This document shows, piece after piece, positions 5,114 to 58,779 of a stretch of DNA of 64,000 bases. Source of the DNA: an uncultured archaeon (GTDB lineage: Archaea > Asgardarchaeota > Lokiarchaeia > Sigyniarchaeales > SOKP01); NCBI GenBank assembly GCA_964447495.1, contig CAYUTF010000006.1, positions 1,156 through 65,155 of the forward strand, read 5' to 3'. A model generated the notes under the pieces. The model did not search any database and was not told the DNA's origin. It was given only the letters and a program-made list of their open reading frames with translations. The stretch's first letter is position 1. Every line of letters starts with the position of its first letter. A program made the position numbers and the translations under genes.

Positions 5114-5160
5114 AAAGTATTAAAATTCCCCGATAACCATTCTAAAAAAAGGTGTAAATT

Positions 5161-6123
5161 ATTTCGAGTTGGAACCAAATTAAAACAATCCCATTTGAAA
5201 GAATAAAGATTGTAAATAACCTTTGTTCTGAATGTGGAAAAAATATTTTGTTTGATGAAAATAGAGGGTTATTGGTTTGTGAAGAGTGCGGATTAGTTCA
5301 TTCAGAGAAATTTATTGATCATGGTCCTGAATGGAGAGCTTTTGATGCTGATCAAAAGAAAAAAAGAACTAGAACTGGAGCCCCTATGACTTATATGATA
5401 CATGATAAGGGCTTATCAACCATGATTGATTGGAAGAATAGAGATATTTTTGGAAAGGAAATTCCCGCAAAATTAAGAGGCCAAATTTATCGACTCCGTA
5501 AATGGCAGAGTCGAATTAGAGTGTCTGATGCGACTGAGCGAAATCTTACTTTTGCTTTAAGTGAATTGGATAGAATGGCTTCTAATTTAGATCTTCATAA
5601 GAACATTCGGGAGTGTTCTGCAAAGATATATAGAGATGCTGTTGAGGCTCATCTTATTCGTGGAAGGAGTATTGAAGGAGTAGCTGCTGCTAGTTTATAT
5701 GCAGCATGTCGTATGTACAAAATTCCACGAACACTCAATGAAATTGCTGATGTAGCAAGGGTAGACAAAAAAGAGATTGGAAGATCGTTTCGATTTATTT
5801 CGAATGAATTATTGCTTAACTTAAATCCTACTAAACCTTTGGATTTTCTTACACGATTTATTTCAGAATTGGAATTATCTCCTTATTGTCAGAAAACGGC
5901 TAAAAAGGTAATAAAAATGGCTGAAGTAAGAGGTTTAACCTCTGGAAGAGGTCCTACAGGAGTATGCGCTGCCGCAATTTATGCGGCCTCAATATTAACT
6001 AAAGAAAGAAGGACTCAAAGAAAAATCGCTAAAATTAGTCAGGTTACAGAAGTGACAGTAAGAAATAGATTTTCTGAATTAATAGATAATTTAGATTTAG
6101 GGATAAAGATTAAAAAGAAATAA
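5161..6123 (+). CDS. tfb: transcription initiation factor IIB (TFB)
   Basis: It has two cyclin-fold repeats and a B-finger/linker region (GPEWRAFD...). The Zn ribbon CSEC-x14-CEEC begins at 5224, upstream of the track's TTG start at 5248. The frame is open from 5158, and the only start candidates are ATT 5158 or 5161 after GGTG at 5151-5154. The call is secure but the start coordinate is uncertain. Confidence 0.85.
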
Positions 6124-6127
6124 TTCC

Positions 6128-6141
6128 TTTTTGCCTTTTTT
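6128..6141 (+). terminator. oligo-T tract downstream of tfb
   Basis: T5 (6128-6132) and T6 (6136-6141) lie directly after the stop codon. Archaeal termination typically uses oligo-T tracts. Confidence 0.4.
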
Positions 6142-6292
6142 CATTAATTTTTACATAACTATTTCACTGTGAAGGATTAAATTTTTGATATTGTTGTGTT
6201 TAAGAGACGTATTATCTTCATATCACACCATTTAATGACTTAAATTTTTCACATTTATTTTATAAATTGCATATTTTGATAGGTCAAATGTT

Positions 6293-6643
6293 ATGAAGTC
6301 AGAAAGTCCGAGATTGATTAATCAAACGGAAGTTAACTACTTTCTCCACCGAGTTAAGAAAAATTTTCCTAATTTTGTGGCAGTTGTTATCACAGATCGA
6401 AATGGATTTCCAATAGGTTCACATATCTCAAAAAGACTATGGGTTCATGAAAACACTTTGGCTTTGTGGGCAATTTCAAAAAATAAAGAATTGGTTATAA
6501 GAGATCCAAATTTAGTCCAATTGAAATTTAATATAGATAAAGAAAAAAGATACAAGCTTTTCATTTTATTGGAGAAATCTAAAAATTACAAAAGTAAATT
6601 AAAATTATTAAAAGAGATAATCAAGGGTCAAGAGCTATTCTAA
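6293..6643 (+). CDS. Roadblock/LC7 (MglB-like) domain protein
   Basis: Its size (116 aa) and pattern fit the Robl/LC7 fold (NFVAVVITDRNGFPIGSHIS...LALWAIS). Confidence 0.5.
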   Translation: MKSESPRLINQTEVNYFLHRVKKNFPNFVAVVITDRNGFPIGSHISKRLWVHENTLALWAISKNKELVIRDPNLVQLKFNIDKEKRYKLFILLEKSKNYKSKLKLLKEIIKGQELF

Positions 6644-6808: not shown

Positions 6809-7288
6809 TTGATAACGTTGAGTTATTCTGAAGATGAGATGAAACTGAAAAAAATTCTAAAGGAGATTATTAATAGTACTGCTGGACTGAAAAACGTTAT
6901 TATTATAGATGATACAGGGATAACTATAATGAGCGAGTCTAAATTTAATTTCCCAAGTGAAGATGATATTTCAGTAGAAAAAATAGGAGCAATTGGAGGA
7001 GCTGTTTTCATAGCTGGACAGGAACAAGGTCATATCTTGGGTTATGGAGATATAAGTCTGCAGATCACGGAATATAATAAAGGCTTTCTTTTTTCACTAA
7101 AAATTGGAAAAGGAGTTCTTTGTATTGCTACAGATAACAACGTACAAGTTGGATATATACGCGCCTTAATGAAAAAATGGGCACCTTTAATAGCAAAAAT
7201 TTTGAACAACTATCTGCAAACTGACCAAGGAGAGATAAATAAAGAATTAAAAGATTTATTTAGTTCAGATACAATTGGAATGTTATAA
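6809..7288 (+). CDS. Roadblock/LC7 (MglB-like) domain protein
   Basis: LKNVIIIDDTGITIMSES...GAIGGAVFIAGQEQG...ITEYNKGFLFSLKIG is typical of Robl/LC7. The start could instead be ATG at MKLKK. Confidence 0.55.
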   Translation: MITLSYSEDEMKLKKILKEIINSTAGLKNVIIIDDTGITIMSESKFNFPSEDDISVEKIGAIGGAVFIAGQEQGHILGYGDISLQITEYNKGFLFSLKIGKGVLCIATDNNVQVGYIRALMKKWAPLIAKILNNYLQTDQGEINKELKDLFSSDTIGML

Positions 7289-8589: not shown

Positions 8590-9291
8590 TTGAAATCTGC
8601 AATAAAGTTGAGCGAAGAAGATTTTTTAAATGATAAAAGAAAGAATCAAAGGAAAGTTTTACTAAGATTTATTGATGCTCCAGTAAAATATTTAATCAAA
8701 CATAATGTTTCGCCCAATACTTTATCATATCTTGGCTTTATATGTTCATTAAGCGTAGCTTTTTTTGTTGCTATCGACGGATTGCATTTTTCTATTTGGT
8801 TTGGGTGGATAGTACCCTTCTTATTATTTTGGGCTGGAGCTTTTGATGTATTTGATGGGGAAGTGGCTCGAAGAACGCATCAAAAATCTAGAGCAGGAGC
8901 ATTTTTAGATTCAAATTTAGATAGACTATCTGATGCCGCAATAATAATTGGTATGATAATAGGTAATTATATAAATTATTATGTTGGATATCTGCTTCTA
9001 TTTTTATTTTTAATGATATCATATATCCGTGCTAAAGCAGAAAATGAAAATCTTGAAATGAGAGGCGTTGGTTTTATGGAAAGAGCTGATCGTTTGATAA
9101 TCCTATGGTTTGCGTTCATTGGGGAATTTTGGGTATATTTTTTATCAAATTTATTTTTAGGATTCACTGTAAATATCTTCTTTCCTATTTTTATCATTAT
9201 CTATATCATCTTACTCTTATTGACAATAGTTCAAAGAATAACTTTTTCTATGAAAGCTCTCAGAAAAATAGATGACCATGAAAATAATTAG
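8590..9291 (+). CDS. CDP-alcohol phosphatidyltransferase family protein (archaeal lipid head-group synthase)
   Basis: The complete motif D-x2-DG-x2-AR-x8-G-x3-D-x3-D is present (DVFDGEVARRTHQKSRAGAFLDSNLD), and the protein is multi-TM. Confidence 0.8.
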   Translation: MKSAIKLSEEDFLNDKRKNQRKVLLRFIDAPVKYLIKHNVSPNTLSYLGFICSLSVAFFVAIDGLHFSIWFGWIVPFLLFWAGAFDVFDGEVARRTHQKSRAGAFLDSNLDRLSDAAIIIGMIIGNYINYYVGYLLLFLFLMISYIRAKAENENLEMRGVGFMERADRLIILWFAFIGEFWVYFLSNLFLGFTVNIFFPIFIIIYIILLLLTIVQRITFSMKALRKIDDHENN

Positions 9292-9432
9292 GATGAAATA
9301 CTAAATAAAGTTGAAACCTACTTCACACTTTTAGTTAAATTGTGAAGAAGAATAAATTTTTTAAGTTGTGTAGTATTTAAGAATTGTGATTTAAAGGATA
9401 AATTAAAAAAATTTAAGTAAAAGCTGATTTTT

Positions 9433-9705
9433 ATTCCAAAGAAAAGAAGAAGTGGTGGAAAAAGCGGTTCTAGCAAGGGACATTATGCCCGAGTGCAATG
9501 TAGTAATTGCGGGAGGTTTGTTGCTAGAAGCAAGGCAAAAGCAGTTACTAGGAGAGTCTCTTTAGTGGATGGACGTATGTATACAGAATTAAAGAAAACT
9601 GGAACGATTATCCAAGCCCCAACTAAGACACAATATTTTTGTATCAGTTGTGCGGTCCATGGACACCAAATTAGTCAACGAGATAAAAATTTAAGAAAAA
9701 CTTAA
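9433..9705 (+). CDS. rps26e: 30S ribosomal protein eS26
   Basis: CSNCGRFV...YFCISCAVHG matches eS26. The conserved N-terminus (M)PKKRRSGGKSGSSKGH is encoded in frame upstream of the track's GTG at 9493. The only start candidate right before PKKRR is ATT 9433, with a stop at 9418-9420. Confidence 0.8.
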   Translation: MPKKRRSGGKSGSSKGHYARVQCSNCGRFVARSKAKAVTRRVSLVDGRMYTELKKTGTIIQAPTKTQYFCISCAVHGHQISQRDKNLRKT

Positions 9706-11834: not shown

Positions 11835-12028
11835 TTTTATCTCTCATTAGGATTGATAATAGGTCCACCAATGGATAGGATTTAATTGCTAATATTATAG
11901 TTTTATTGTTTTTATTGTTTTGTTAATGATAAAAAATCATAAGCGATTAATTTAGGTTTTTTAAAGAGTACTATCTTATCTTAATTTATTATCATATTTT
12001 TGAAAAAGAATGAAATAATTGATATTTT

Positions 12029-12532
12029 ATGAAAATTATAAGTCTAATTGGATATTCTGGTTCAGGGAAAACACATTTCATTGTCAAGGCAATAGAGATG
12101 TTAAAATCTGAATTTAATCTTAATATTATAGTAATTAAGAATGTACACACCCACAAACTAGATATTGAGGGTAAAGATTCATATGAATTTTCAAAAGCAG
12201 GAGCAGATTTTTCAATAATTAAAAATAAATATAATAAATTAGCCGTTTTTTTCAAAAAGGAATTAGAAGTTAACGATATTATTGATTGGATTTTAAAACT
12301 CTCTAATGATATTGATTTAGCTTTTATAGAAGGATTTAGAGAGGAAAAATATCCTGGAATATTATGTGCAAAGAATATTGAGGATGTTATTCCTCAATTG
12401 AACCCAAATATTAAAATGATATCTGGTTTAATCTCTGTTGATAATAATACTATAAAATCTGAAGAAGGGGTTCCAATTATTAATATAGAAAAGAATTTTC
12501 ACACATTTTTAGAAATATTTAATATTAAATAA
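12029..12532 (+). CDS. mobB: molybdopterin-guanine dinucleotide biosynthesis adapter MobB-like P-loop protein
   Basis: MKIISLIGYSGSGKTHF...VIKNVHTHKLDIEGKDSYEFSKAGA matches the MobB pattern. Confidence 0.65.
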   Translation: MKIISLIGYSGSGKTHFIVKAIEMLKSEFNLNIIVIKNVHTHKLDIEGKDSYEFSKAGADFSIIKNKYNKLAVFFKKELEVNDIIDWILKLSNDIDLAFIEGFREEKYPGILCAKNIEDVIPQLNPNIKMISGLISVDNNTIKSEEGVPIINIEKNFHTFLEIFNIK

Positions 12533-17481: not shown

Positions 17482-17784
17482 AATTATTCATTACTTTATT
17501 TCATTAATTTGAATATTTCCTAAATCATATTTTAATCTTTACTTTGTCAAGAAGTAGAGATTTTAGGTTTTTATTAATCAGTTAATATAGTAATTACTCT
17601 CAATTTAATATAAGAAAAATAATAGTATATGTAAAATTTGAGTAAATAGCGTGAATTACTCTCAAAAATGTAGAATTTTTACATAGAAAATATGTGATTC
17701 CGACAAAAATGAGAGAGGATAGGTAATCTCGGGAATTTATAATCTTGAATTTTTTTAATAAAAGGAGTTTAAGAGCGTATAATA

Positions 17785-18129
17785 ATGAGTTCAGGTAAAG
17801 TAGAGTTTAATTCAAACACAAAAATTAATAAAGTTGATTCTGTAGGATTTCTACCAAATTCCTCTTTTGAACAAGATTATAATGAAAATATAGAGATTAC
17901 TGAACTAAAATCCTTAAACTGTATATCGATTATTAATGATTATAGTAATTATGGTTTCCCAGCTGTTAAGAAAAATATCGAAGAATTTTATTACAAGGCA
18001 TTAAAAATTCATTTAATTCTTTTAAACAATGACAATCTAACAAATAATCAGAAGCTGAATTATTGCAAATTAGGAAGGACTTACATGAAACTATATTTAA
18101 AAGAAATTGTCAAAAAAAATTTCATTTAA
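17785..18129 (+). CDS. hypothetical protein
   Basis: The ORF has an AGGAG-like motif upstream (aaaggagtttaag) and no recognisable motif. Confidence 0.3.
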   Translation: MSSGKVEFNSNTKINKVDSVGFLPNSSFEQDYNENIEITELKSLNCISIINDYSNYGFPAVKKNIEEFYYKALKIHLILLNNDNLTNNQKLNYCKLGRTYMKLYLKEIVKKNFI

Positions 18130-36403: not shown

Positions 36404-36509
36404 ACGATTTAAGCAATATTATAAAATTTAAACAAAATAATTAAATAGGATAGAATCTATTTTTAGATGGAACTACAATCTATATTGTAGCGCAAAAAGA
36501 TGATTTGAT

Positions 36510-42744: not shown

Positions 42745-42881
42745 GATCTTTCACCTATTTTTAGTTACTTTTAATTTTCTAATTATTTTATGGATTTGTT
42801 AATTGAGTATTTATTAAAAATATTAATTTAATAATTTATAAATAAATTTGGTTAACTTCTATTTAACGTTTAATATAAAGT

Positions 42882-43031
42882 CTAAATTGTATTAGGTTTT
42901 TTTATAAATAATTGTCGTGCTGCTCTGCATTTCGGACATTTATATTCCTCATTCAAGTTATCGAATGGTATTTTGTTCTCTTCATCAATGTAAAGGTAAT
43001 TACATCGTTTGCATCTATATATCGCCACCAA
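42882..43031 (-). CDS. rubredoxin-like small CxxC...CxxC protein (49 aa; not in ORF track)
   Basis: Reverse translation gives (M)VAIYRCKRCNYLYIDEENKIPFDNLNEEYKCPKCRAARQLFIKKPNTI*. The start is TTG 43031 or GTG 43028, just after GGTGAT. It lies 10 nt downstream of the NROR-Rd gene stop. Confidence 0.55.
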   Translation of the reverse strand: MVAIYRCKRCNYLYIDEENKIPFDNLNEEYKCPKCRAARQLFIKKPNTI

Positions 43032-43040
43032 ATCACCGCT

Positions 43041-44405
43041 TTATTCTTTTAGTTTGAAATCTTTTTTAGTAGCACGGCACTTTGGATTAGGGCATTTAAA
43101 ATCTTCTGGTAAATCTTTAAATGTTACGTCCATTTTAGCCTCATCGTAGACAGCACCACAGTTGACGCATGCATATTCATGTATATTTAACAAGTTCTTT
43201 AATTCTTTCGTATTGACATCTTGCTCCATCTTACTATAAACATAGGATAATGCATTATTATCACCAAAGAGGATTGCTCCTTTAAGTTTATTATCTTTAA
43301 GAACGACTTTTTGATAACAGCAATCTTTTTTATCTGCGCGTTTTAAGATATCCCATCCGCCACCCTTTTCGCTACTAGGATCAAAGGTTCCGATTGAAGT
43401 TAGTTCTAATCCTACTATTTTTAGGGTATTTTTCGGAGTTGTGCCAGTATACTCTTTCATTTTCTTCTCAAGTACCGAAGCGGCTATGATTTTTGATTGC
43501 TCCATGCATGCAGGGATAATTCCCCACGTTTGATTTTTATATTCGATACAATCCCCAACAGCATAAATATCTTTTTCACTTGTTTCCAAGAATTCATTTA
43601 CGATAATCCCTCTATTAGTGGCAATACCTGCCTTTTGAGCTAATTCGATTTCAGGTTTGATTCCCGCTTGAATCAGGATAAGATCGGCAGTAAGGGTTCT
43701 CCCATCTTTTAATTTAATGCCCTCAACGCTTCCATTTCCCAATATTTCCTCTGTTGTTGCATTTAAGACAACTTCTATTCCACGATTTTCAATCTCTTCC
43801 TTTAACATAGTACTGCATTCGTCATCTAACTGTTTTGGTAGTAATCGAGGGAAAAATTCAACGATGGTTGTATCGAGATTTGATTTGTTAATTTGATTTG
43901 CTAATTCTAGACCTAATAATCCTCCACCAATTATTATCGCTTTCTTTTTTGAGTTGAATAGTTTGATATAATCCTTTATTTCCATAGCATCCTTTATGCT
44001 ACGGAGAGTAAAAAGCCCTTTATGGTTCATTTCTAGAGCATTTTTAATCGGAGGAATACTTGGATTACTTCCGGTGGCAATAATGAGCTTATTGTATGAT
44101 ATTGGATTAGGAGATTTCTCAGAATAGATCAATTTGTCTTTTGGGTTTATTTTTGTTATTTTTTCCCCAAGATGGAGCTTAATATTTTTAGTTTCATACC
44201 ATTTTTCTTTAAAGACAATTAAATCTGGGATTGTAACTTTATCGGAGATGAATTCTGGTAATTTAATCCGAGTATAGTAGGGATATTTTTCTTGAGTGAA
44301 TATGTCGATCTCCGCGCTATCATTGAGATTACGTATATTTTGAGCGCTAAAGGTTCCGGCAACATTATTACCGATTATTAATATCTTCATAGATTTTAAA
44401 CTCAT
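43041..44405 (-). CDS. NAD(P)H:rubredoxin oxidoreductase-like FAD flavoprotein with C-terminal rubredoxin-type domain
   Basis: It has two dinucleotide-binding motifs (ILIIGNNVAGTFSA; AIIIGGGLLGLELA) and GDC. The C-terminus is YACVNCGAVYDE...DLPEDFKCPNPKC (C-x2-C...C-x4-C). Confidence 0.8.
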   Translation of the reverse strand: MSLKSMKILIIGNNVAGTFSAQNIRNLNDSAEIDIFTQEKYPYYTRIKLPEFISDKVTIPDLIVFKEKWYETKNIKLHLGEKITKINPKDKLIYSEKSPNPISYNKLIIATGSNPSIPPIKNALEMNHKGLFTLRSIKDAMEIKDYIKLFNSKKKAIIIGGGLLGLELANQINKSNLDTTIVEFFPRLLPKQLDDECSTMLKEEIENRGIEVVLNATTEEILGNGSVEGIKLKDGRTLTADLILIQAGIKPEIELAQKAGIATNRGIIVNEFLETSEKDIYAVGDCIEYKNQTWGIIPACMEQSKIIAASVLEKKMKEYTGTTPKNTLKIVGLELTSIGTFDPSSEKGGGWDILKRADKKDCCYQKVVLKDNKLKGAILFGDNNALSYVYSKMEQDVNTKELKNLLNIHEYACVNCGAVYDEAKMDVTFKDLPEDFKCPNPKCRATKKDFKLKE

Positions 44406-44542
44406 TTCATTTTATTTTAAGATTATTATTATATATTTAAAATTTAAAAATAAAATGAGAAGATTTGGAGATGTTCAAATAAAACTTTAATAATTCATGA
44501 TAATTCAATACAATGAAAAAAATTTTGTAAGAGGTTATATAA

Positions 44543-44929
44543 ATGTTAGAAAAATTGAAGATTGATTTAATTGAAAAGATAATTGATACATTACCACTTG
44601 AGATGTCTTTTATTGATGCAGAGGACCGTGTTCAATATTATAGTAAAGGAAATAAAAGGATTTTTAAAAGATCTCCAGCTGTAATCGGTAAAAAAGTACA
44701 AAATTGTCATCCTCAGAAAAGTCTTGATAAAGTAAATGCAATATTAGAAGATTTTAAAAACAAGAAGCGAAATGTAGCGGAATTTTGGATTCCAGTAAAT
44801 GATATGTTTTTATATATCAGATATTTCCCTGTTGAAGATGAAAACGGAAAATACTTAGGAACATTAGAAGTGACTCAAGAGATAAGTAAGATTAAGACAA
44901 TAGAAGGAGAAAAAAGATTGCTTGATTGA
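44543..44929 (+). CDS. PAS-like domain protein of the type found C-terminal in DUF438/hemerythrin-associated proteins
   Basis: LPLEMSFIDAEDRVQYYSKG..IFKRSPAVIGKKVQNCHPQKS...ILEDFKNKKRNVAEFWI matches that conserved family pattern. Confidence 0.55.
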   Translation: MLEKLKIDLIEKIIDTLPLEMSFIDAEDRVQYYSKGNKRIFKRSPAVIGKKVQNCHPQKSLDKVNAILEDFKNKKRNVAEFWIPVNDMFLYIRYFPVEDENGKYLGTLEVTQEISKIKTIEGEKRLLD

Positions 44930-45007
44930 AACCAGTAATCGAAGATGTTCGAAAGTTAGAGTTTAAGGTTTCTATAATTCAAACATCTATGATTGAATTG
45001 GTTCTTA

Positions 45008-45760
45008 TCAATAGGATTTCTTAAAACAGATTATTCCCCCAAATTCATTAATTCGGCTTCCCGCAGCAGTCTCTTCAGAGATTATTCTTGTCATAATTCC
45101 CTTGTTTTCAGCGATTTGTTTAAGTCTGTAAATTCGGTTCTTTTTTTTATGATTTTCAAAAAAATTATCAGATATTAAAAGATAATCTACTTTTTCAGCT
45201 GGAGATTTATCATTTTTGCCACCCTTATAAATTAAATCCTCGATCTCTTTTAAACCATAAAGTACTAATATGGTTTTATCATCTAAGTTTATTGCTTTCT
45301 CAAGCTGGTTTATAATAAGATTGGTTTCATCTGATATTGTTTCGGATATAATTTTCAAAGAATGGTCCTGAGCTATGAGAGTCGTTGTTTCTTCTAAATT
45401 ACGAGCAAAACCATCAATTTGTCCAATAGTTATCTGGTTATTTCTTCTTGAACTTACTAACCAATGATGATGTTTATTGATATGTTCAAGAAAGCTATTA
45501 GAATAATCTAGTTTTGAAGGATTCGCTAAGAGAATACTTTTAAGACCATTGTTTATTATTGGTCTGATCGAATCTACGAGCTCTTCAAAAAAGTGGTATT
45601 TTTCCTTATCATCTGCATATTGCCATTTCTTAGATAGTTTTATTTGTTTAATTCTATTTACTTTATAAGTATAAACGTTCCAAAGATGTATTTCTTGCTC
45701 AGCAAACCCAACCAGCAATGCAACCAAGAATCCTCTTTTTTGCTTTTTCTTCATTGCCAT
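45008..45760 (-). CDS. short eRF1/Pelota-like paralog (central plus C-terminal domains only, no GGQ)
   Basis: The C-terminal part (VLYGLKEIEDLIYKGG...VDYLLISD...LKQIAENKGIMTRIISEETAAGSRINEFGGIICF) resembles eRF1 domain 3. The N-terminal part (GFLVALLVGFAEQEIHLWNV) resembles the central domain. It is only 250 aa long. Confidence 0.5.
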   Translation of the reverse strand: MAMKKKQKRGFLVALLVGFAEQEIHLWNVYTYKVNRIKQIKLSKKWQYADDKEKYHFFEELVDSIRPIINNGLKSILLANPSKLDYSNSFLEHINKHHHWLVSSRRNNQITIGQIDGFARNLEETTTLIAQDHSLKIISETISDETNLIINQLEKAINLDDKTILVLYGLKEIEDLIYKGGKNDKSPAEKVDYLLISDNFFENHKKKNRIYRLKQIAENKGIMTRIISEETAAGSRINEFGGIICFKKSY

Positions 45761-45971
45761 GAATAAAGTGGATTGAGTATTAGATGTTTTTTGTAAAAAT
45801 AATTACTTAATGACCGATTTCTCTATTCTATAGGAGAAATCCTTCAAAATTTAAATTATAAATATAAAATGTTTTCAAATTAATTAAAATTTCTCCTTTA
45901 GAATTAGTTAAATGAATCCTTAGAACATGTTCGAGATAGAAATTATTTTTTAGAAAATATTGTATCTATTT

Positions 45972-46721
45972 ATGACCGAAGCTCAAAGTAAAAGAGTAAA
46001 AAGAAAGATCATTGAAATTGATGATGAACTGTGTACTGGCTGTGGAAATTGTGTCGTCTCTTGTGCAGAAGGAGCTTTAAAAATAATTGATGGAAAAGCA
46101 CGCGTCATAAATGAAGTTTTTTGTGATGGATTAGGAGCCTGTATCGGAGAATGTCCTGAAGGAGCTCTAAAAATTATAGAAAGAGAAGCTTTAGAATTTA
46201 ATGAGGAGGAAGTCGAAAAATATTTGGAATCTATAAAACAAGAAACTATAAGCGAAGTTCATCAATGTGGTTGTCCTTCCGCTCAAACTATAGTATTTGA
46301 AGAAAATCTCGCTGAAGAGATGCCTTCTGGAGAGTCTTATTCAGCACTTAGGCAGTGGCCAATCCAGATGCATTTAATAAATCCTTCAGCACCCTATTTT
46401 AAAAATGCAGATGTGTTACTCACAGCAGATTGTGTTGCTTATGCACTCGGAGGATATCACAGCGAGTTTCTGAGAGGAAAATCTATAGCTATTGCATGTC
46501 CTAAACTTGACCAAGGAAGAGAACGATACATTGAGAAGATTAGAATGTGGATTGATGATGCAAAAATCAATACGCTTACAGTTATGATGATGGAAGTTCC
46601 ATGTTGTACGGGATTATTAGCTCTAGCAAAAGATGCTGCAAATCAGGCACGTCGAAAAGTTCCTATTAAATATATTATAGTTGGGATAAAAGGAGAGATA
46701 TTAAAAGAAGAATGGCTTTAA
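45972..46721 (+). CDS. 2x[4Fe-4S] ferredoxin-domain protein with conserved Cys-rich C-terminal domain
   Basis: CTGCGNCVVSC and CDGLGACIGECP are present, and the downstream domain has CGCP, ADCVAY, IACPKLD and VPCCTG. The track ORF begins at TTG 45960. Confidence 0.65.
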   Translation: MTEAQSKRVKRKIIEIDDELCTGCGNCVVSCAEGALKIIDGKARVINEVFCDGLGACIGECPEGALKIIEREALEFNEEEVEKYLESIKQETISEVHQCGCPSAQTIVFEENLAEEMPSGESYSALRQWPIQMHLINPSAPYFKNADVLLTADCVAYALGGYHSEFLRGKSIAIACPKLDQGRERYIEKIRMWIDDAKINTLTVMMMEVPCCTGLLALAKDAANQARRKVPIKYIIVGIKGEILKEEWL

Positions 46722-46741
46722 TATTCTTCGTTTTATCGATT

Positions 46742-47395
46742 TTAATCATTTACGACTACTTTCTTTTTAATTATTTTTCTTAGCATTACAGATAATGCTG
46801 ATTTTGATTTACCTAAATGATTCGCTAATTCTTCTAAAGAAATTAACCGTGGAATTTCAAAAAATCCTTGTTCTATTGCCGCTTCTAAAACTTTAGATTC
46901 ATCTAATGTTAAGCGTTCTTTCTCTTCATCTAAAATGTAGGGAGAAGTACCGATTCTCAATAATTCATAATTGATTTTTCTTTGCTCAAAAATTGTTAAT
47001 AACTTATCTATATTCTCTCTACTAGAAATGAGCCGCCAGTAAGCAAATCCATTGCGGACATGAACAGGAAATTTAACAAGCACGCCACATTTAATTAAAG
47101 CATATAATAGATAAGGATCTTTAGTTTTTATGTTAAACCTTACTTTATTCTCTTCTTGCTTCAAAAGCGTAAAATCATGAACAGAGGGATGAGTTCTTAC
47201 AGAATTTATCACATCTTTAATATGATAATCTTGAATTTCAATAATGGAATTCCCGATAGATTTTTCTAAATCAAAGGGTAGAAAATACTCAATTTCCATC
47301 TTAATATTAGGAAATTTATCAAATATCTCAGAAATCCAAATTTGTTCTGGAAATTTTACTTTTATTCTTGCCAAACTTGCTTTCCGTGAGACCAT
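46742..47395 (-). CDS. HTH_10 (bacterio-opsin activator-type) transcriptional regulator
   Basis: The C-terminus is LTLDESKVLEAAIEQGFFEIPRLISLEELANHLGKSKSALSVMLRKIIKK. Confidence 0.65.
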   Translation of the reverse strand: MVSRKASLARIKVKFPEQIWISEIFDKFPNIKMEIEYFLPFDLEKSIGNSIIEIQDYHIKDVINSVRTHPSVHDFTLLKQEENKVRFNIKTKDPYLLYALIKCGVLVKFPVHVRNGFAYWRLISSRENIDKLLTIFEQRKINYELLRIGTSPYILDEEKERLTLDESKVLEAAIEQGFFEIPRLISLEELANHLGKSKSALSVMLRKIIKKKVVVND

Positions 47396-47480
47396 CTAAT
47401 TTAGTAGTGATAAGCAGTATAAATTTTTTTTCTGTAATTTAAATAATTAATAATATATAGCTCTAGAAATTTGTATTATT

Positions 47481-48080
47481 ATGGTCGAGAACAAAAATTT
47501 ATTATTAGGTATCTGTGGAAGTCCTAGGAAGCAAGGAACGGAATTTGCAGTGCAATATGCTCTAGATTATGCTCGTGAAAAATTCAATTTTGAGACTGAT
47601 TTTTGGACGGTAAGGGGGAAGAAAATCAATTTTTGTATACATTGCGATTATTGTGTTAATGAGAAAAAAGGATGTATTCATAAGGACGATATGCTTGAAC
47701 TATATCCTAAATTAGAGAATGCTAAATTTTTATTGTTTGGAACGCCGGTGTTCCAAGGGAATCTTTCGGGCCAATTGAAAACAATCATGGATCGGTGCAG
47801 AGCTTTAGTTGCAAAAAATCCGCAGGTATTTAAAGGAAAGTTTGCCGCTGCTCTTGCTGTAGGAGGCGACCGAAATGGAGGACAAGAAATTGCAATACGC
47901 ACAATTCTCGACTTTTATCAGCAAAATCACATATTTTCTATATCAGGAGGTGCATTTGGAGCAAATTTGGGCGCAAGTTTATGGAGTAAGGATATTGGTA
48001 AAGATGGTGTTGAGAATGATGAAGAAGGTTTAAGAGCGATAAGAAAAATAATAAAACGATTAGCAGAGCTTAAAAAATAA
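47481..48080 (+). CDS. iron-sulfur flavoprotein (Isf; NADPH-dependent FMN reductase fold)
   Basis: GICGSPRK is present, with the compact Cys motif CIHCDYCVNEKKGC (C-x2-C-x2-C-x6-C) and LAVGGDRNGGQE. Confidence 0.8.
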   Translation: MVENKNLLLGICGSPRKQGTEFAVQYALDYAREKFNFETDFWTVRGKKINFCIHCDYCVNEKKGCIHKDDMLELYPKLENAKFLLFGTPVFQGNLSGQLKTIMDRCRALVAKNPQVFKGKFAAALAVGGDRNGGQEIAIRTILDFYQQNHIFSISGGAFGANLGASLWSKDIGKDGVENDEEGLRAIRKIIKRLAELKK

Positions 48081-48107
48081 ACAAAAAAGAAAAATACGAT
48101 TTTAAAC

Positions 48108-48431
48108 TTATTTTACACCAAAAATTTTCTTCGCTTCCTTTTCGCGGAGCCCGGAGATCCCCCACAATTCCTTGAACCAATACTTTCCTTTATACATTAC
48201 GACTGGTGTGTTGACAACACATCCATCCGCATCACAATAATTTTTTAAGAAATTCTCATCATGGAGTAATTGATGCACAAATTCCTCGTCATTAATATCT
48301 TTTTCAACAAATTTTACTTCGTGTTTGTCTAACCAAGTCTTTAACTCATGGCAGTGCGAGCAGCCTTCTTTTGTAATGAGTATTGGGAGATTAATTTCTG
48401 ACATAATATTATTATTAAGACTGTAAGACAT
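48108..48431 (-). CDS. glutaredoxin/NrdH-like thioredoxin-fold protein
   Basis: ILITKEGCSHCHELKTWLDKHEVKFVEKDIN is present, with a CxxC motif. Confidence 0.65.
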   Translation of the reverse strand: MSYSLNNNIMSEINLPILITKEGCSHCHELKTWLDKHEVKFVEKDINDEEFVHQLLHDENFLKNYCDADGCVVNTPVVMYKGKYWFKELWGISGLREKEAKKIFGVK

Positions 48432-48573
48432 AAAAAATTTTTATCTTCTAAATTATAAATTTAATAATGAAACAGTGATTCTAAGTTGAATTATTTATAA
48501 TTACGTTAATTCCGTATTGCGAAGGATTTTAATAGAGAAGAAGTAATTTAATTAAATAAACTGAATATGTAAT

Positions 48574-49617
48574 TTAAATAAGTTGTTTTATTAACCACCG
48601 TAATGCATTAATTAATTTTTCGTCTTCGCTTAACACATTTATAGAAAAAAATTGTATGGGCATTCCGCATTTTTCTAATTCATTGATATCAAAGTTTTTA
48701 TATATGAAATCAGAACTTATTTCTTCCTTATCATGGAACTTGTTTCCAATAATCATGATGGGCATATATTCTCCTTTATCTAAACATCTATTTAAAACAA
48801 GCTGAAACATATCTATAGTATCATTTACACTGGTTTTATCTGTTGCGTTAAAGATTAAAATAAACGCTTCTGCATTATCCATGCAATAGTCATAAAATTT
48901 TTTCTGTGTTCCTTCATACTCATCATCAATACATTCATAAGTTAAAATCTCAATGTTGTCAATTATAAAATCATAGACTTTATTAACGAGATTCCTCTTT
49001 GCTTCATTCTCTTTATAGTGAAGAAATTGTATTACTTCTAAGTTTTTTAATAATGTTGTTTTGCCTGAATTCCTCGGTCCAAAGATATAGACTTTTTTCA
49101 AGTCTCCTTTACCTAAAATAGGTGCTGCAACGTTGATTTTTGGGCTAATATTCATGTAATATTTATTAAAAATATCTAAGAATTGCTTTTTGAAACGCTT
49201 TGATGCCATCTTTAAGGGATTTTTTTTAAGAGAACCCTCTTTTTGATTATGGATTAGTTTGGTTAACTCCTTATGTGTTTTTAATTCAGCAGCAAAATCT
49301 TCTAATTCTTTTGATTTTGATAATAAATAATTGTAAATATCCGTAATTTCGTCTTTATAATAGGCGGCACGGATCATATAGGTTATCATGAGTACCTCCT
49401 TCCCTCCACGGGCTATTTCTGATTCTATGTAAAAGATATGGTTAATCGTTTGATATTTTCGATAGGCAAAAATGAAGGTGCCTTCTTCCTCTTGAAATTC
49501 AAGAATTCTTCCTAAATCTGGATGTTCATTAGCAACCAGAGGAGTAGTGCAATAAAGGATATTAGGTCCTATGATACTATCGAAATAACTTAAACAAAGA
49601 ATAGATTCATTTGGCAT
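48574..49617 (-). CDS. divergent small-GTPase-like P-loop domain with ~160-aa N-terminal alpha/beta extension
   Basis: The G1 motif is GPRNSGKT. The G4-like motif is IIGNKFHD (NKxD with one extra residue). I found no clean DxxG. The N-terminal domain pattern resembles longin/roadblock-type folds. Confidence 0.5.
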   Translation of the reverse strand: MPNESILCLSYFDSIIGPNILYCTTPLVANEHPDLGRILEFQEEEGTFIFAYRKYQTINHIFYIESEIARGGKEVLMITYMIRAAYYKDEITDIYNYLLSKSKELEDFAAELKTHKELTKLIHNQKEGSLKKNPLKMASKRFKKQFLDIFNKYYMNISPKINVAAPILGKGDLKKVYIFGPRNSGKTTLLKNLEVIQFLHYKENEAKRNLVNKVYDFIIDNIEILTYECIDDEYEGTQKKFYDYCMDNAEAFILIFNATDKTSVNDTIDMFQLVLNRCLDKGEYMPIMIIGNKFHDKEEISSDFIYKNFDINELEKCGMPIQFFSINVLSEDEKLINALRWLIKQLI

Positions 49618-53682: not shown

Positions 53683-54375
53683 ATGCTATTTTCGGAAAAT
53701 GAATTAAATAATATTAAAAGAGAAATGAGTAAATTAAAAAATAAAGTTATTCTCAAATTATTTACTGATTTTAAAACTCAAGAAGATGGTTCTAAGTTAA
53801 GAAAATGTATGTCATGTGAAGGAACTTATGAATTATTGATATCTTTAGAGGAACTATCTAATGGAAAATTATTAATTGAAGAAGTATCAATAGAAGAAAA
53901 TGCTGATGAAGCAAAAAAGTATAGTGTTTCTAGAATTCCAGCAATTTTATTTGTTGATGACGACGGAAAAGAAATTCTACGTTATTCTGCCTATCCAACA
54001 GGATCTGAATTTGTACCGTTTCTTAATAGTATACAGTACTTTTCTGGTGTAAGACCCTTTTATGCGGATCAGATACTTTCTCATCTTAAAAAGATTGATC
54101 AGTCAAAGATGAAGATTTTTATAACTCCCACATGTCCATATTGTCCTGCAACCGTTCCAGTGTTAACTCTATTCGCCATTGTATCAAAAGGTAAGATTTC
54201 AGCGGAGGTTATAGATGTGAACTTAAATCCAGATATTGCAATGAAATATCAAGTTCAAGGAGTGCCCCATACGGTAATAAATGAAACAGAAAATATTTAT
54301 GGCATGTTTTCTCCTCAGGATTTACTGGATAAACTTACTAAGGGGGAGAGAGATTTTGGGGGAATGTATGCTTAA
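53683..54375 (+). CDS. protein disulfide oxidoreductase (PDO; two thioredoxin-fold units), paralog 1
   Basis: The N-unit has CMSC and the C-unit has CPYC, the length is ~230 aa, and RIPAILFVDDDGKE is present. Confidence 0.75.
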   Translation: MLFSENELNNIKREMSKLKNKVILKLFTDFKTQEDGSKLRKCMSCEGTYELLISLEELSNGKLLIEEVSIEENADEAKKYSVSRIPAILFVDDDGKEILRYSAYPTGSEFVPFLNSIQYFSGVRPFYADQILSHLKKIDQSKMKIFITPTCPYCPATVPVLTLFAIVSKGKISAEVIDVNLNPDIAMKYQVQGVPHTVINETENIYGMFSPQDLLDKLTKGERDFGGMYA

Positions 54376-54396
54376 TTTATTGAGGTGATTTAAACA

Positions 54397-55080
54397 ATGT
54401 CGCAAGATGATAAATATCGAGAGATAATTAAGAGAGAAATGGCTAAATTGACTAAGCCGGTGAAATTGAAAGTATTCACTTCTCTAAGCGCTAAACCAGA
54501 TGGAACTAAGATAAGAGCTTGCATGGATTGCGATCAGTTTATGTCTTTATTAAGAATTTATGAAGAAAATTCTAATGGATTGCTCACAATAAATGAGCTT
54601 TCCATTGAGGAAAATCCAGAATTTGCTAAAAGATATGACATTCAGAGAGTTCCAACAATATTATTTGTAGATGATAATGGGGATGAATTAATTAGATATT
54701 TAGCAGCCCCTCAAGGTGGAGAGATCCAACCGTTTATTCAAGCACTTTTTACTTTTGCAGGATCTCCCAATTATTATGAAGCAACAATAAAGCAAAATCT
54801 AAATAGAATTTCACCATCCACGATAAAAGTTATGATCACAAATTCTTGCCCATATTGCCCTCAAGTAGTCTCAATAAGCAATCAGTTTGCATTGGCTTCG
54901 AACGGAAAAATTAGAACTATAGTCATCGATATTATGGCAAATCCTGATATAGGACAATATTATGATGCCTCTGGTGTACCATATACTATTATTAATGATA
55001 AAAAAACTTTAGTTGGAATGGTAGGTCCGAATGAAATAATTCGAGAGCTTATTGGGGGCAATATCCGGGTACAGTATTGA
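54397..55080 (+). CDS. protein disulfide oxidoreductase (PDO), paralog 2
   Basis: The N-unit has CMDC and the C-unit has CPYC. GGTGAT lies 8 nt upstream of the ATG. Confidence 0.75.
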   Translation: MSQDDKYREIIKREMAKLTKPVKLKVFTSLSAKPDGTKIRACMDCDQFMSLLRIYEENSNGLLTINELSIEENPEFAKRYDIQRVPTILFVDDNGDELIRYLAAPQGGEIQPFIQALFTFAGSPNYYEATIKQNLNRISPSTIKVMITNSCPYCPQVVSISNQFALASNGKIRTIVIDIMANPDIGQYYDASGVPYTIINDKKTLVGMVGPNEIIRELIGGNIRVQY

Positions 55081-55113
55081 TTTAAGTAAATCTTTATTTT
55101 AAAAATAAAAAAA

Positions 55114-55773
55114 GTGAGCAAAATGCCAGCTTCATACATAATTAAGAAAATGTTAAAACAAGAATTAAATAAGCTTCTAAACCCTGTTAGGCTAATGTTA
55201 TTTTTTGATAATAATGATACAATAAAATCCCAAGGAGAAAAAGATAATTTATTAACACTTAAGATGTATGAAGAGTATTCTAATGGGAAGTTAATATTCG
55301 AAAAATACATTATCAATGAAAATAAAGAATTAGCAGAAAAATATCACATTGATAGAGTTCCAACTATTTTGTTTGTTGATGATAAAGGAAATGAACTAAT
55401 TCGCTATCTAGCGATACCAAAAGGTAGTGAAGTAAAACCATTTATTCAAACCATAGTAATACTTTCAGGAGTGAAGAATTATTATAAAGCCGCTATTAGA
55501 GGAATTATTGGAAAGATTGATTCTACTACTTTAAAGGTCATGGTGACAGATTCTTGTGCCTATTGTCCAGAATTAGTCATTATGGCTTCCCAATTTGCAC
55601 TGGCTTCGAAAGGAAAGATTAGAGCCGAAATAATAGATATTATGAAAAATCATGATATTGGTAATAAATATAATACTCAAAGTGTTCCTTATATTGTTAT
55701 AAACGATAGGAATCCTATAGTAGGTTTATATCACCCTAATGATTTATTGGAGGAAATTCTTAAAGAAAATTAA
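55114..55773 (+). CDS. protein disulfide oxidoreductase (PDO) paralog 3, N-terminal CxxC lost
   Basis: It is colinear with paralogs 1 and 2. The C-unit CAYC is retained, but the N-unit position reads KSQGEKDNLL with no Cys. Confidence 0.7.
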   Translation: MSKMPASYIIKKMLKQELNKLLNPVRLMLFFDNNDTIKSQGEKDNLLTLKMYEEYSNGKLIFEKYIINENKELAEKYHIDRVPTILFVDDKGNELIRYLAIPKGSEVKPFIQTIVILSGVKNYYKAAIRGIIGKIDSTTLKVMVTDSCAYCPELVIMASQFALASKGKIRAEIIDIMKNHDIGNKYNTQSVPYIVINDRNPIVGLYHPNDLLEEILKEN

Positions 55774-55823: not shown

Positions 55824-56768
55824 ATGTATAATATTAATATGGAAGAATTTGATGTAGAGAAAATATATGATCTTATTGTTTTAGGAGGAGGTCCTACGGC
55901 TATAGGATGTGCAATATATGCAAAACGATTCGCAATGGATGTGCTCATAATAGGCAAAACTTTTGGAGGATTAATTGCTACTACTCATATTGTAGAAAAT
56001 TATCCTGGAATTACTACAGTTAGTGGTCAGGGCTTAATGGATATGTTCAGAGATCATATGGATTCGCTAGAGATCCCGTACATTTCTGATGAAATAAGAA
56101 GCATTGAAAAAATAGATGACCATTTTGAATTGCTTTCTTTTTTCCAGAAATTTAAAGCCCATTCAATCGTCATCGCAACAGGATCAGTAAGGAAGAAGCT
56201 GGGGATACCTGGAGAAGATGAATTTGCAGGAAGGGGAGTATCTTATTGTGCAACTTGTGATGGTCCATTTTACAAGGATAAGATAGTTTGCGTAATAGGA
56301 GGGAGTGATTCGGCAGCAAAAGAGGCTCTCTTTTTAGCACAGAATGTTAAAAAAGTCTATATCATATATCGAGGTGAAGAATTAAGAGCTGAACCAATAA
56401 ATAAAAAAAGAGTAAAAGAAAATGAGAAAATTGAAATCATATATAAGAGAAATATCATAGAAATCATCGGAGAGGGAAATGTTAAATCTGTTATGTTTGA
56501 TAATGGAGAGATTCTACATGTCGATGGTGTGTTTATTGAAATAGGATCCGTTCCTAACTCTGAGATTGCTCAGCGAATTGGAGTAAATTTGAATGCAAAA
56601 AATGAGATTATAATAAATCGTAAATCCGAAACAAATATTCCTGGTATATTTGCTGCAGGAGATGTGGCGGATGCTCCTTTCAAGCAAGCAATAACAGGAG
56701 TGGCAGAAGGAGTAATGGCAGCATATTCCTCATTTGACTTTTTAAAAGAAATGAATATTGAATATTAA
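55824..56768 (+). CDS. trxB: thioredoxin reductase
   Basis: GGGPTAIG, the redox motif CATCDG, GGSDSAAKEA and GDV are present. Confidence 0.9.
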   Translation: MYNINMEEFDVEKIYDLIVLGGGPTAIGCAIYAKRFAMDVLIIGKTFGGLIATTHIVENYPGITTVSGQGLMDMFRDHMDSLEIPYISDEIRSIEKIDDHFELLSFFQKFKAHSIVIATGSVRKKLGIPGEDEFAGRGVSYCATCDGPFYKDKIVCVIGGSDSAAKEALFLAQNVKKVYIIYRGEELRAEPINKKRVKENEKIEIIYKRNIIEIIGEGNVKSVMFDNGEILHVDGVFIEIGSVPNSEIAQRIGVNLNAKNEIIINRKSETNIPGIFAAGDVADAPFKQAITGVAEGVMAAYSSFDFLKEMNIEY

Positions 56769-56916
56769 TTATTTGATGTGTTTTATCCTATTTTTAATTT
56801 AAAGTCTTTTTAAATCCATAGAATAAAAATCAATTCCATGTTATATTGGAGTTTATATTATTCTATTAAAAAAAATAACAACCAAGAAATTTTTAATAAA
56901 CTGGAGAAGATATTTC

Positions 56917-58230
56917 GTGTCTTGGCTAAGTGTTATTTTAACGCTTACTTTAACCATTACTTGTTATTATATTATTACTATTTTTTATTTAGAGGTTTTG
57001 AAAAAGAAAGGAAAATCTTTTTGGAAGAAATTAAAGCTAAATAAAAATCATCCAAGATTAAATACTGTACTGGGGCTTAGTTTATTAATTTTATTAGGGG
57101 GATCAATAGGATTATTCTGTTTTAATATAAGTAATCGAATTGCATATTTTAAATTTGGCATATCAGGTTCATCTGAGTGGGTCTATTCGAATGGTCAAAA
57201 ATATCTACACATCAACGCAGATAATAATTATGATTTAGGGTATCACACAGGGTACCAATTATCATCAGAAGTTTTCAAAATGAAATTTTTATTATCTGTT
57301 TCAGAAGCTTCCTTTGGTGTTTCCTATGCTCAATTTCTCGATTTATCAGAAAAATATCTTCCATTTATTCCTCAAAAATATATTGAGGAAATGCAAGGTT
57401 TAAGTGAAGGTGCTTCTGCGGGAAGTGGTTTTCCTATAAGCTTTTCTGATATTCTTATACAAAATGTTATTTTTGAGATTTTATATGGTCTTATCAATCC
57501 TCTTGATTTATCTGTGGAAAATACTTTAGGATGTACCACTTTTGGTTCAAAAAATCATGATGGAACAATAATTATAGGTCAAAATATGGATTTAGTAAAA
57601 CCTTTTTCATGGGTACAATCATTCGTATTGCATAAAGTAAATGATGATCCCTACGTTTTTTCTTATAGGCTAGGAGGGTGTTTAGCGATGCCTATGGGAA
57701 AAAATGAATATGGATTGACATTAATAACAAATTTAGTACAAACAAAAATAGTAGCACCAATAATGACACCAACATTTGTCTTGATAAGAGAAGGTTTAGA
57801 AAAAGAAAAGAGTGTAGATGACTTATATGATTCGCTATTTCCAAGTAATAAAAGTTCGTATAGTAGAAATTTTATAATTGCAAATCAAACTACTTTATTA
57901 TCAGTTCAATCTTTACCAGATAATCAAACAATTTGTCATCCTGAAACGATAGTTGTACAATCTAACACTTTTAACAATCTTTATTGGCAAAAATATCTGG
58001 TTGATGACCAATACTCAAAAGAGCGACAAATATACGCTGAAAGTTTAATAATCGATGCTTTTAATGATAATGAATTAACAAATCAAGAATTACTTTTAAT
58101 TTTAAAAGATACCCCAATCATTTGTAGAGACGAAGAAGGTCTCATTGGAATGAGTACGCTAGCATTTATGACTTCTAAATCCTTTGGGTTAGGAAATCCA
58201 AATGGTAAGATCGGAATTCTCCCATTTTAG
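56917..58230 (+). CDS. membrane-anchored peptidase C45 / acyl-CoA:6-APA acyltransferase-family Ntn hydrolase
   Basis: It has two N-terminal TM segments. The nucleophile context LGCTTFGSK..GQNMD is typical of C45/choloylglycine-type Ntn hydrolases. Confidence 0.6.
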   Translation: MSWLSVILTLTLTITCYYIITIFYLEVLKKKGKSFWKKLKLNKNHPRLNTVLGLSLLILLGGSIGLFCFNISNRIAYFKFGISGSSEWVYSNGQKYLHINADNNYDLGYHTGYQLSSEVFKMKFLLSVSEASFGVSYAQFLDLSEKYLPFIPQKYIEEMQGLSEGASAGSGFPISFSDILIQNVIFEILYGLINPLDLSVENTLGCTTFGSKNHDGTIIIGQNMDLVKPFSWVQSFVLHKVNDDPYVFSYRLGGCLAMPMGKNEYGLTLITNLVQTKIVAPIMTPTFVLIREGLEKEKSVDDLYDSLFPSNKSSYSRNFIIANQTTLLSVQSLPDNQTICHPETIVVQSNTFNNLYWQKYLVDDQYSKERQIYAESLIIDAFNDNELTNQELLLILKDTPIICRDEEGLIGMSTLAFMTSKSFGLGNPNGKIGILPF

Positions 58231-58274
58231 CTATAAGTCATAATTTTAATAGTTAAATAAAAAAAAGAAATATA

Positions 58275-58583
58275 TTAATCAATTGGTACATCTACAGCAC
58301 CTTCCATATGATCCTTGAAAGGTACTTCAACTTTTAATATTCCATTTTTATACATGGCTTTCGATTTATCAGCAGATACGGGACAACATATGGCATATGA
58401 TCCCACATATACTGTATTTTCACTTTCCCCTTTCACAAAAAAAGAATCCTCATGCATTTTCAAAGCTATTGTATCTTTTTCTACACCGGGCATAGTTATT
58501 TCAATATGATAATTATCATGTTCATCATCTGCATAAGCACATATATCAGGGGATATTATATACTTTTCTTTCTCTTCAGATAT
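58275..58583 (-). CDS. Hsp20/alpha-crystallin-domain small heat shock protein
   Basis: HIEITMPGVEKDTIALKMHEDSFFVKGE...AMYKNGILKVEVP is present. The track start ATG 58493 falls inside the ACD (within ..EITMPGV..). The frame is open back to TGA 58592-58590, and ATA 58583 lies 6 nt after GGTGA (58594-58590). Confidence 0.7.
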   Translation of the reverse strand: MSEEKEKYIISPDICAYADDEHDNYHIEITMPGVEKDTIALKMHEDSFFVKGESENTVYVGSYAICCPVSADKSKAMYKNGILKVEVPFKDHMEGAVDVPID

Positions 58584-58779
58584 GATTAATCACCTTTTTA
58601 ATTTAATTGGATTTATTTCATTAAGAAATATCAAAATAGGCATTTTAAAACTTTGTTTTATGATTTGTAAGACTTTGGACTAAATCCTTATTTGAAAGAA
58701 TATTTCAGAGCCATTTTTATTTTATTTTATAAATTTTATACATAATATCATATTTACGTTAACTTTATCGCCTATTTTT

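Follow-up and report, generated by a model that had tools for sequence, protein, structure and literature searches.

Reviews describe archaeal translation as initiating at AUG, GUG, and UUG codons. A 64,000-nt stretch of DNA from an uncultured archaeon of the class Lokiarchaeia (positions 1,156 to 65,155 of contig CAYUTF010000006.1, assembly GCA_964447495.1; below, the window) raises the question of how several conserved genes are started when no such codon lies upstream of N-terminal residues that their families require. The original prediction, made from these letters, proposed that five of them, encoding the transcription factor TFB (TFIIB), ribosomal protein eS26, a rubredoxin, Hsp20, and a MacB-type permease, begin at ATT or ATA. 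Comparison with related loci leads us to give a probability of about 0.85 to a reading in which near-cognate initiation, mostly at AUU but also at AUA and, in relatives, at AUC, is assisted by Shine-Dalgarno (SD) sequences, is unusually frequent in Lokiarchaeia, and is conserved in a gene-specific manner. When the reading frames were rederived, all five genes were present as predicted, and the lack of any ATG, GTG, or TTG between the upstream stop and the required residues held for them and for a sixth gene, encoding a TPR protein.

Start codons in the window and in related loci

The TFB protein was scanned against one genome per species, and 80 loci were kept of 142 relatives; with the window, these made 81 sequences (1.37 Mb), in which all open reading frames (ORFs) were clustered and the families aligned to read start columns. 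The 80 loci share a common gene order with the window, encode TFB proteins 82 to 95% identical to its own, and are almost all labeled Promethearchaeota or Promethearchaeia (the Asgard and Lokiarchaeia lineage). The window has a G+C content of ~29% overall, ranging from 26 to 35% across it.

The TFB gene (5161 to 6123, plus strand) carries the strongest comparative record. Its frame is open from 5158 and reads TAA, ATT, ATT (5161) TCG AGT TGG; the SD sequence AGGTG (5150 to 5154) is followed by the in-frame TAA (5155 to 5157) and one variable codon (5158 to 5160). The first ATG, GTG, or TTG is TTG 5248. The Pfam domain Zn_Ribbon_TF matches residues 23 to 62 of the open frame, and TTG 5248 therefore sits between the two CxxC pairs of the zinc ribbon. 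Across the 81 sequences, the start column, which is the Ile codon of a conserved I-S-S-W, holds ATT in 70, ATC in 8, and ATA in 3, and in no orthologue is it ATG. The codon before it varies (TTT, AAT, ATT, TCT, TAT, and others). In 44 sequences, no more than one codon separates this column from an in-frame stop, the frame opening at the codon preceding ATT in 43 and at ATT itself in 1. In 30 of the 81, a canonical codon is absent from the upstream stop through 10 codons downstream, and 16 others have a nonconserved one within those 10 codons. The leader AAGGTGT is the most conserved noncoding stretch upstream of the gene, with entropies of 0.10 to 0.48 bit per base at the GGTG positions. ATT makes up 86 to 88% of the Ile codons at the TFB and eS26 start columns (86% for TFB) versus 52% among Ile codons generally, in a test that ignores phylogeny; the TFB start codon does not behave like a freely drifting Ile codon. 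Among the metagenome-assembled genomes (MAGs) that supplied these loci, several (L006, L013, L016, L024, L026, L043, L051, and others), whose TFB is 84 to 90% identical to that of the window, bear the titles Hodarchaeota, Hermodarchaeota, Odinarchaeota, Thorarchaeota, and even Nanopelagicaceae; these odd titles are likely taxonomic mislabels.

The eS26 gene (9433 to 9705, plus strand) is situated ~4 kb away from TFB, and 44 of the loci contain it. Its frame is open from 9421, ATT 9433 corresponds to position 1 of the Pfam S26e profile, and the first canonical codon is a GTG 24 codons into the open frame. The SD-like GCTGA (9423 to 9427) ends five bases before the start codon and has one mismatch to GGTGA. 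A conserved (A)GCTGA-TTTTT precedes the start column, and the string (A)GCTGATTTTT-ATT is kept in most of the 44 loci. The column reads ATT in 35, ATA in 3, ATC in 2, ATG in 2, CTG in 1, and GTT in 1; 39 of the 44 have no canonical alternative, and in four species, the TGA within GCTGA falls in the eS26 frame, so that just two codons remain ahead of ATT. From ATT to the first canonical codon, the entropies of the three codon positions are 0.36, 0.35, and 1.15, as compared with 0.49, 0.34, and 1.16 farther downstream; because the two stretches show the same coding pattern, the upstream one is under protein-coding selection. The single CTG, in locus L017, follows a stop directly (TAA CTG CCA AAG) and makes CUG a candidate eS26 start there. 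A public protein from another MAG at NCBI (P0187) is annotated from CTG as MIFIPKKR.

The two genes with ATA have orthologues that begin with Met at the same position. For the rubredoxin (46 amino acids [aa]; 42604 to 42744, minus strand), the minus strand reads AGG TGA AAG ATC ATA(42744) GCG AAA TAT GAG TGT: the SD sequence AGGTGA (42756 to 42751) itself holds the in-frame stop TGA, and only four codons separate this stop from KYEC. Orthologues of 46 aa (MAKYEC, 83 to 89% identical) place Met1 on the window ATA. A JGI metagenome contig (L001) matches window positions 42455 to 48598 at 100% identity and includes the rubredoxin ATA; positions 42927 to 45405 are also matched without any difference by a Logan contig, which ends short of the gene. 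The Hsp20 gene (102 aa; 58275 to 58583, minus strand) is arranged in the same way, with the SD sequence AGGTGA (58595 to 58590) holding an in-frame TGA and ATA at 58583. From 58589 onward, its frame is open and meets no ATG until 32 codons in, within the alpha-crystallin domain; the Pfam match to this domain starts ~10 residues before that ATG. In twenty-odd 102-aa orthologues, the closest 82 to 83% identical, Met (MSEEK, MSEDK, or similar) stands exactly at the window ATA. L083, a sequence of a second lineage and of another sample, repeats AGGTGA-N6-ATA together with the in-frame TGA; its public Hsp20 call is a 72-aa truncation. In an ENA assembly (L084, positions 512 to 600), Hsp20 has a normal ATG and a 1-nt frame-shifting deletion, and the public call is a 72-aa fragment; the deletion is either an assembly error or the mark of a pseudogene.

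The MacB/FtsX-type permease gene (26634 to 28547, minus strand) begins in the context GGTGAT TGA GAA ATT(28547), with the SD sequence GGTGA at 28559 to 28555 and the in-frame TGA at 28553 to 28551; its first canonical codon is a GTG 22 codons in. Five metagenomic relatives (51 to 76% identity) all show SD-N6-8-ATT TCn (I-S-L/I-D-F-A). In 4 of the 5, in-frame stops lie 0 to 2 codons upstream of ATT, and in L090 a TAA directly precedes it. The stop of the adjoining ABC ATPase gene overlaps an ATG at 28560 (TAATG) that opens a 25-codon ORF (28483 to 28560, minus strand) in a frame other than that of the permease, overlapping its ATT start; this arrangement, ATGGTGATTGA, is common to L088 and L089.

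The TPR/SNAP-like protein gene (22057 to 23712, minus strand) had been put forward as a weaker case. It proved strong: TAA 23715 to 23713 is immediately followed by ATT 23712, to which Met1 of the full-length homologues P0121, P0122, P0124, and P0103, found by searching 1.84 billion representative proteins, aligns. The first canonical codon is a TTG 35 codons into the open frame. The SD sequence of this gene, GGGTTGAT at 23725 to 23718, is imperfect.

Further families in the related loci extend the pattern. In CbiM, 31 species have ATG immediately ahead of the invariant His2 codon, 2 have TTG, and 3 have ATT; each ATT follows AAGGTGA-N7, and position 1 of the Pfam profile is residue 2. The free N terminus of CbiM and His2 form a metal site, and for this reason the start cannot lie elsewhere. 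A CbiO-type ATPase has GGAGGT or AAGGTG 6 to 8 nt upstream of ATT in at least 29 species, several of them with a stop directly upstream and with no canonical codon for 9 to 84 codons. In a 165-aa family of unknown function (fam19, N terminus MHLVLTYF), the start is ATG in 16 members, ATT in 8, and ATA, ATC, GTG, and TTG in 2 each; 11 of the 12 members with ATT, ATA, or ATC have no canonical alternative. A ketopantoate-reductase-like gene reads AGGTGA-N6-ATT AAA ATA TTA, giving (M)KILIYGAGVIGS, and position 1 of the Pfam ApbA profile is residue 3. The remaining noncanonical codons at start columns of the related loci are rare singletons.

Hsp20, rubredoxin, TPR, CbiM, the 165-aa family, and, with few ATG members, eS26 thus all have a candidate codon that coincides with the Met1 or start column of orthologues with canonical starts. 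The start position is bounded by the in-frame stops before it and fixed by conserved residues or by the Met1 of orthologues.

Some apparent cases were not counted. In three families (an AsnC-type regulator, window 246 to 1373; a P-loop protein with GGKGGVGKS; and a small protein, window 12023 to 12532), apparent ATT, ATA, or ATC starts were one-codon alignment shifts beside a canonical codon. Two more were dropped, one as an antisense shadow ORF and one as an internal SD-like Gly-rich stretch. A review of Pfam domain boundaries gave no further clear case in the window, the TusA, B12-binding, CoA-ligase, and ABC ATPase genes fitting canonical starts. A membrane protein with an AAT-family domain (56827 to 58230, plus strand) may be a seventh gene with an ATT or ATA start: its first canonical codon is a GTG 30 codons in, and a positively charged n-region, KKITTKKFLINWRR, is encoded upstream, although no clear SD sequence precedes it. 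At 17779 to 17787 (plus strand), AAAGGAG-N8-ATA ATA ATG has an SD spacing that suits the ATA codons better than the ATG, and the start is ambiguous.

Shine-Dalgarno spacing, frequency, and points against near-cognate initiation

The spacing of the putative starts resembles that of canonical ones, as had been proposed. Between GGTG and ATT or ATA there are 6, 7, 7, and 8 bases in the set of TFB, rubredoxin, Hsp20, and permease, and in the 821 first canonical starts of the window and its relatives, SD matches are found mostly 5 to 9 nt upstream, with a peak at 6 to 7. The canonical genes cited as SD-led examples, rbr, iscU, and PDO2, were confirmed at 35819, 32227, and 54397. In all six window genes, ATT or ATA stands 5 to 8 nt after a GGTG-type SD sequence, imperfect in eS26 (GCTGA) and in the TPR gene. 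By our tally, a strict 5-mer SD sequence precedes 4 of the 6 ATT/ATA-start genes versus ~8 of 54 canonical ones (Fisher P = 0.012); ATT and ATA starts are thus concentrated in SD-led genes, as would be expected if a weak codon needs positioning.

Such starts account for 6 of roughly 60 window genes, a rough ~10% (ATT four, ATA two). In the TFB neighborhoods, with TFB itself left out, ~2 of 23 families are dominated by ATT and 2 more show such starts sporadically, together ~9% of gene instances by our own rough tally. Any single ATT or ATA case could be due to chance, since ATT, ATA, and ATC make up ~15% of codons in upstream stretches; the comparative data rule chance out.

A number of considerations weigh against this reading. 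The 10% figure comes from one 64-kb window, which the original prediction had picked for this very feature. The statistical association with SD sequences is less clean than its P value. The test, which excluded TFB, was restricted to codons that lie upstream of the first canonical start and are followed by no canonical codon among the next four, and it scored a strict SD 5-mer at 5 to 9 nt; the 5-mer preceded 62 of 1,070 ATT, ATA, and ATC codons (5.8%; ATT alone, 9.1%) versus 44 of 6,116 others (0.7%), with an odds ratio of 8.5 and a Fisher P value of 2e-25 that is inflated at the instance level by orthologue redundancy. At the family level, the counts were 8 versus 11 families, with 15% expected (binomial P = 0.004). 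Permuted G-rich control motifs gave odds ratios of 0.5 to 4.2, that is, some enrichment at ATT, ATA, and ATC; this control is not clean because G-rich permutations overlap degenerate SD sequences, and we treat the SD statistic as secondary. The ATA start proposed for an Ubl gene at 23999 was not supported: an in-frame GTG is available at 23990, and the ATA 23999 start would probably lose IVI, which reads as the beginning of the first beta strand. Both the first residue, Met or Ile, and the efficiency with which these codons initiate are inferred from sequence. The archaeal machinery would also be expected to disfavor AUU, since aIF1 blocks formation of 30S complexes on an AUU mRNA in vitro in Sulfolobus solfataricus (PMC4705826).

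Initiation at these codons could proceed as follows. The duplex between a GGTG-type SD sequence, 5 to 8 nt upstream, and the anti-SD would set the 30S preinitiation complex with AUU or AUA in the P site. The initiator Met-tRNA (anticodon CAU) would pair with the first two bases, the mismatch at the third position being tolerated, and the protein would thus begin with Met where its orthologues carry ATG.

Two kinds of gene can be told apart by how the codon evolves. The weak codon itself is kept in some: ATG occurs in 0 of 81 TFB genes, 2 of 44 eS26 genes, and 0 of 6 permease genes (the window and five relatives). By analogy with bacterial infC, ATT in TFB, eS26, the CbiO-type ATPase, and the MacB-type permease may be conserved because selection favors a weak, possibly aIF1-sensitive start, and we infer that the conserved ATT of TFB and eS26 may have a regulatory role. 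In Hsp20, rubredoxin, CbiM, and the 165-aa family, ATG and ATT, ATA, or ATC alternate between species, which suggests near-neutral turnover in an AT-rich genome with a tolerant initiation machinery. A broader proposal, which we hold tentatively and at somewhat below even odds, is that Lokiarchaeia, and perhaps Asgard archaea widely, have AUU as a fourth, regular start codon of SD-led mRNAs, with AUA and AUC used less, in about 1 gene in 10, and that the weak codons of TFB and eS26 are held by selection so that output follows aIF1 stringency. If this were true, standard gene finders would impose systematic N-terminal truncation and an omission bias on Asgard proteomes, and the closest archaeal relatives of eukaryotes would show relaxed, tunable start codon selection.

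Alternative explanations

The alternative that fares best, though we regard it as rather unlikely, is a stronger form of the same reading: a lineage-specific change in initiation, by a variant or modified anticodon of the initiator tRNA or by altered aIF1, aIF1A, or aIF2, would make AUU and AUA efficient regular starts. The high frequency, ~10% of genes, would fit, as would the presence among the cases of genes whose products are expected in quantity (TFB, eS26, and Hsp20) and the free exchange of ATG with ATT, ATA, or ATC in several families; the dependence on a strong SD sequence, in contrast, fits weak codons that need help. Scans of the window and of 60 related loci revealed no tRNA gene, and no Rfam hit came up either.

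For TFB only, the GTG inside AAGGTG could initiate instead. It is in frame, three codons upstream, in 35 of the 81 species, which weighs against an ATT start in these, and the commonest arrangement is GTG, then TAA or TAG, one codon, and ATT; initiation there would give either a three-residue extension or a GTG-TAA "start-stop" with reinitiation at the nearby ATT. We consider this very unlikely, given that no SD sequence lies upstream of the GTG, where the sequence is A/T rich, that the residues between it and ISSW are unconserved, and that AAGGTG matches in sequence and spacing the SD sequences before canonical starts. The GTG arrangement is not shared by the other genes with ATT or ATA starts, where either a TAA or the TGA contained in GGTGA provides the in-frame stop.

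Still harder to sustain is a start at the first downstream ATG, GTG, or TTG, with truncated proteins and an upstream conserved stretch that is noncoding or vestigial. Gene finders do call exactly these truncations (TFB of 291 aa, Hsp20 of 72 aa, and eS26 of 62 to 70 aa), but these would cost TFB half of its zinc ribbon, rubredoxin its first CxxC, eS26 and the permease their N termini, and Hsp20 the beginning of its alpha-crystallin domain. The upstream stretch of eS26 evolves as coding sequence, orthologues with ATG place Met1 exactly on the ATT or ATA position, and the downstream canonical codons are not conserved in position between species. Because the codons are conserved across independent assemblies, with stops 0 to 2 codons upstream in TFB, eS26, and the permease, a downstream canonical start is untenable and misassembly is excluded.

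A sequencing or assembly artifact, in which ATG was miscalled as ATT or ATA or a homopolymer indel hides a canonical start, is the least credible explanation of all: the permease does have a +1-frame ATG (28560) that overlaps the upstream stop, with a run of seven A's downstream, and the Hsp20 of one relative (L084) does bear a 1-nt deletion, but the same codons recur in independent assemblies (81 TFB, 44 eS26, and 5 permease sequences), the JGI contig is 100% identical over the rubredoxin start, and the conserved permease N terminus ISLDFA is encoded only in the ATT frame. The specific version in which the permease starts at the ATG of TAATG and a poly(A) indel shifts the frame was rejected, as all five relatives keep SD-ATT, including L086, L087, and L090, which have no out-of-frame ATG. 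A variant genetic code that reads the upstream stops as sense was likewise rejected: the stops upstream of the start regions include TAA, TGA, and TAG, and all three end long ORFs of the window (38, 9, and 7, respectively).

Known near-cognate starts and public annotation

The proposed SD-assisted near-cognate initiation in Lokiarchaeia has its closest parallels in the AUU starts of E. coli infC (encoding IF3) and pcnB, which are likewise preceded by an SD sequence and read by the initiator tRNA, with the weak codon itself conserved; their use depends on a start fidelity factor (PMC4705826). These are bacterial, IF3-based cases limited to a handful of genes per genome, in contrast to the ~10% seen here. 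While infC encodes an initiation factor, the Lokiarchaeia set comprises TFB, eS26, transporters, and stress proteins, and an autoregulatory loop of the infC type would be hypothetical here. Other bacterial examples are the noncanonical starts of Deinococcus deserti, identified by N-terminal proteomics (PMC2830850), and the GTC start of Streptomyces sigR, with its IF3-dependent regulation (PMC5472188); both have likewise been a source of misannotation. These bacterial starts are few and experimentally validated, whereas the Lokiarchaeia case is comparative and far more frequent.

Within archaea, SD motifs have been noted as not prevalent in P. syntrophicum, and in Haloferax ribosome profiling, ~30% of putative alternative sites were near cognate but were set aside. 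Our literature search found no systematic report of such starts, which is not proof of absence, and a sole Asgard mention, the "rare ATT start codon" proposed for AtubA in a MAG of Kariarchaeaceae (Heimdallarchaeia) (Sci Adv 2026, PMC13394414). There too, the public call is truncated; starting at an upstream ATT brings back a conserved strand at the N terminus and puts the ribosome-binding site at a plausible distance (PMC13394414). AtubA differs in being one gene, called rare, from another Asgard class, and described without comparative or statistical analysis (PMC13394414).

In eukaryotes, near-cognate starts are sensitive to the level of eIF1, which together with eIF5 controls stringency and which autoregulates through its own poor start context; aIF1 is the homologue of eIF1. 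Eukaryotic initiation differs in relying on scanning and Kozak context and in favoring CUG, whereas the Lokiarchaeia starts are SD positioned with AUU dominant. Mitochondria, whose genomes are very AT rich, routinely initiate at the same set of AUA, AUU, and AUC codons. They do so with a single modified tRNA-Met (f5C34) and on largely leaderless mRNAs. The Lokiarchaeia codons differ in being tied to SD sequences. Lineage-wide conserved AUU codons on TFB and eS26 would offer a testable handle on aIF1-dependent stringency in the archaeal lineage closest to eukaryotes.

The prediction that such a genome would be systematically misannotated stood only in part. Prodigal-type calls do truncate or miss these genes. 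The public TFB of this contig is a 291-aa protein from TTG 5248, which drops half of the zinc ribbon, and its Hsp20 is a 72-aa truncation; when the exact products were looked up in the protein collection, neither full-length TFB and Hsp20, nor full-length or GTG-truncated eS26, nor the rubredoxin of this contig was on record. The rubredoxin is also missing among the gene calls on the identical JGI contig. For some related MAGs, on the other hand, NCBI starts eS26 or TFB at ATT, ATA, or CTG, as in a 90-aa eS26 that begins MPKKR on contigs with ATT at this position and a TFB that begins MISSW, called from ATA. The NCBI pipeline handles noncanonical starts ad hoc and is inconsistent between MAGs; because it calls the same genes correctly in some MAGs only, presence/absence and domain comparisons are biased by pipeline. 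Searches for eukaryotic signature proteins and surveys of ribosomal and transcription factor content draw on Asgard genomes, and if ~10% of genes start with ATT or ATA, Prodigal-type calls would lose N-terminal domains or whole small genes.

Two further features of the region were noted. TTG is the conserved start in gene families at window positions 4865 to 5113, 6809 to 7288, and 8590 to 9291 and in the related loci L003 to L082; it is found in 78 of 80, 63 of 73, 43 of 47, and 36 of 43 members of TTG-start families. Because it is conserved in several families, TTG is a major rather than an occasional start codon of the lineage. Genes for redox and oxidative stress functions are dense in the window (42604 to 44405, minus strand; 35819 to 36905 and 53683 to 55773, plus strand). 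Among them are a gene for a pyridine-nucleotide oxidoreductase that has a rubredoxin-like domain at its C terminus and is followed by two small rubredoxins, and a rubrerythrin-like gene. The three tandem genes at 53.6 to 55.8 kb are the PDO paralogues of the original prediction, and the first, the only one of them scanned, has a thioredoxin-fold domain.

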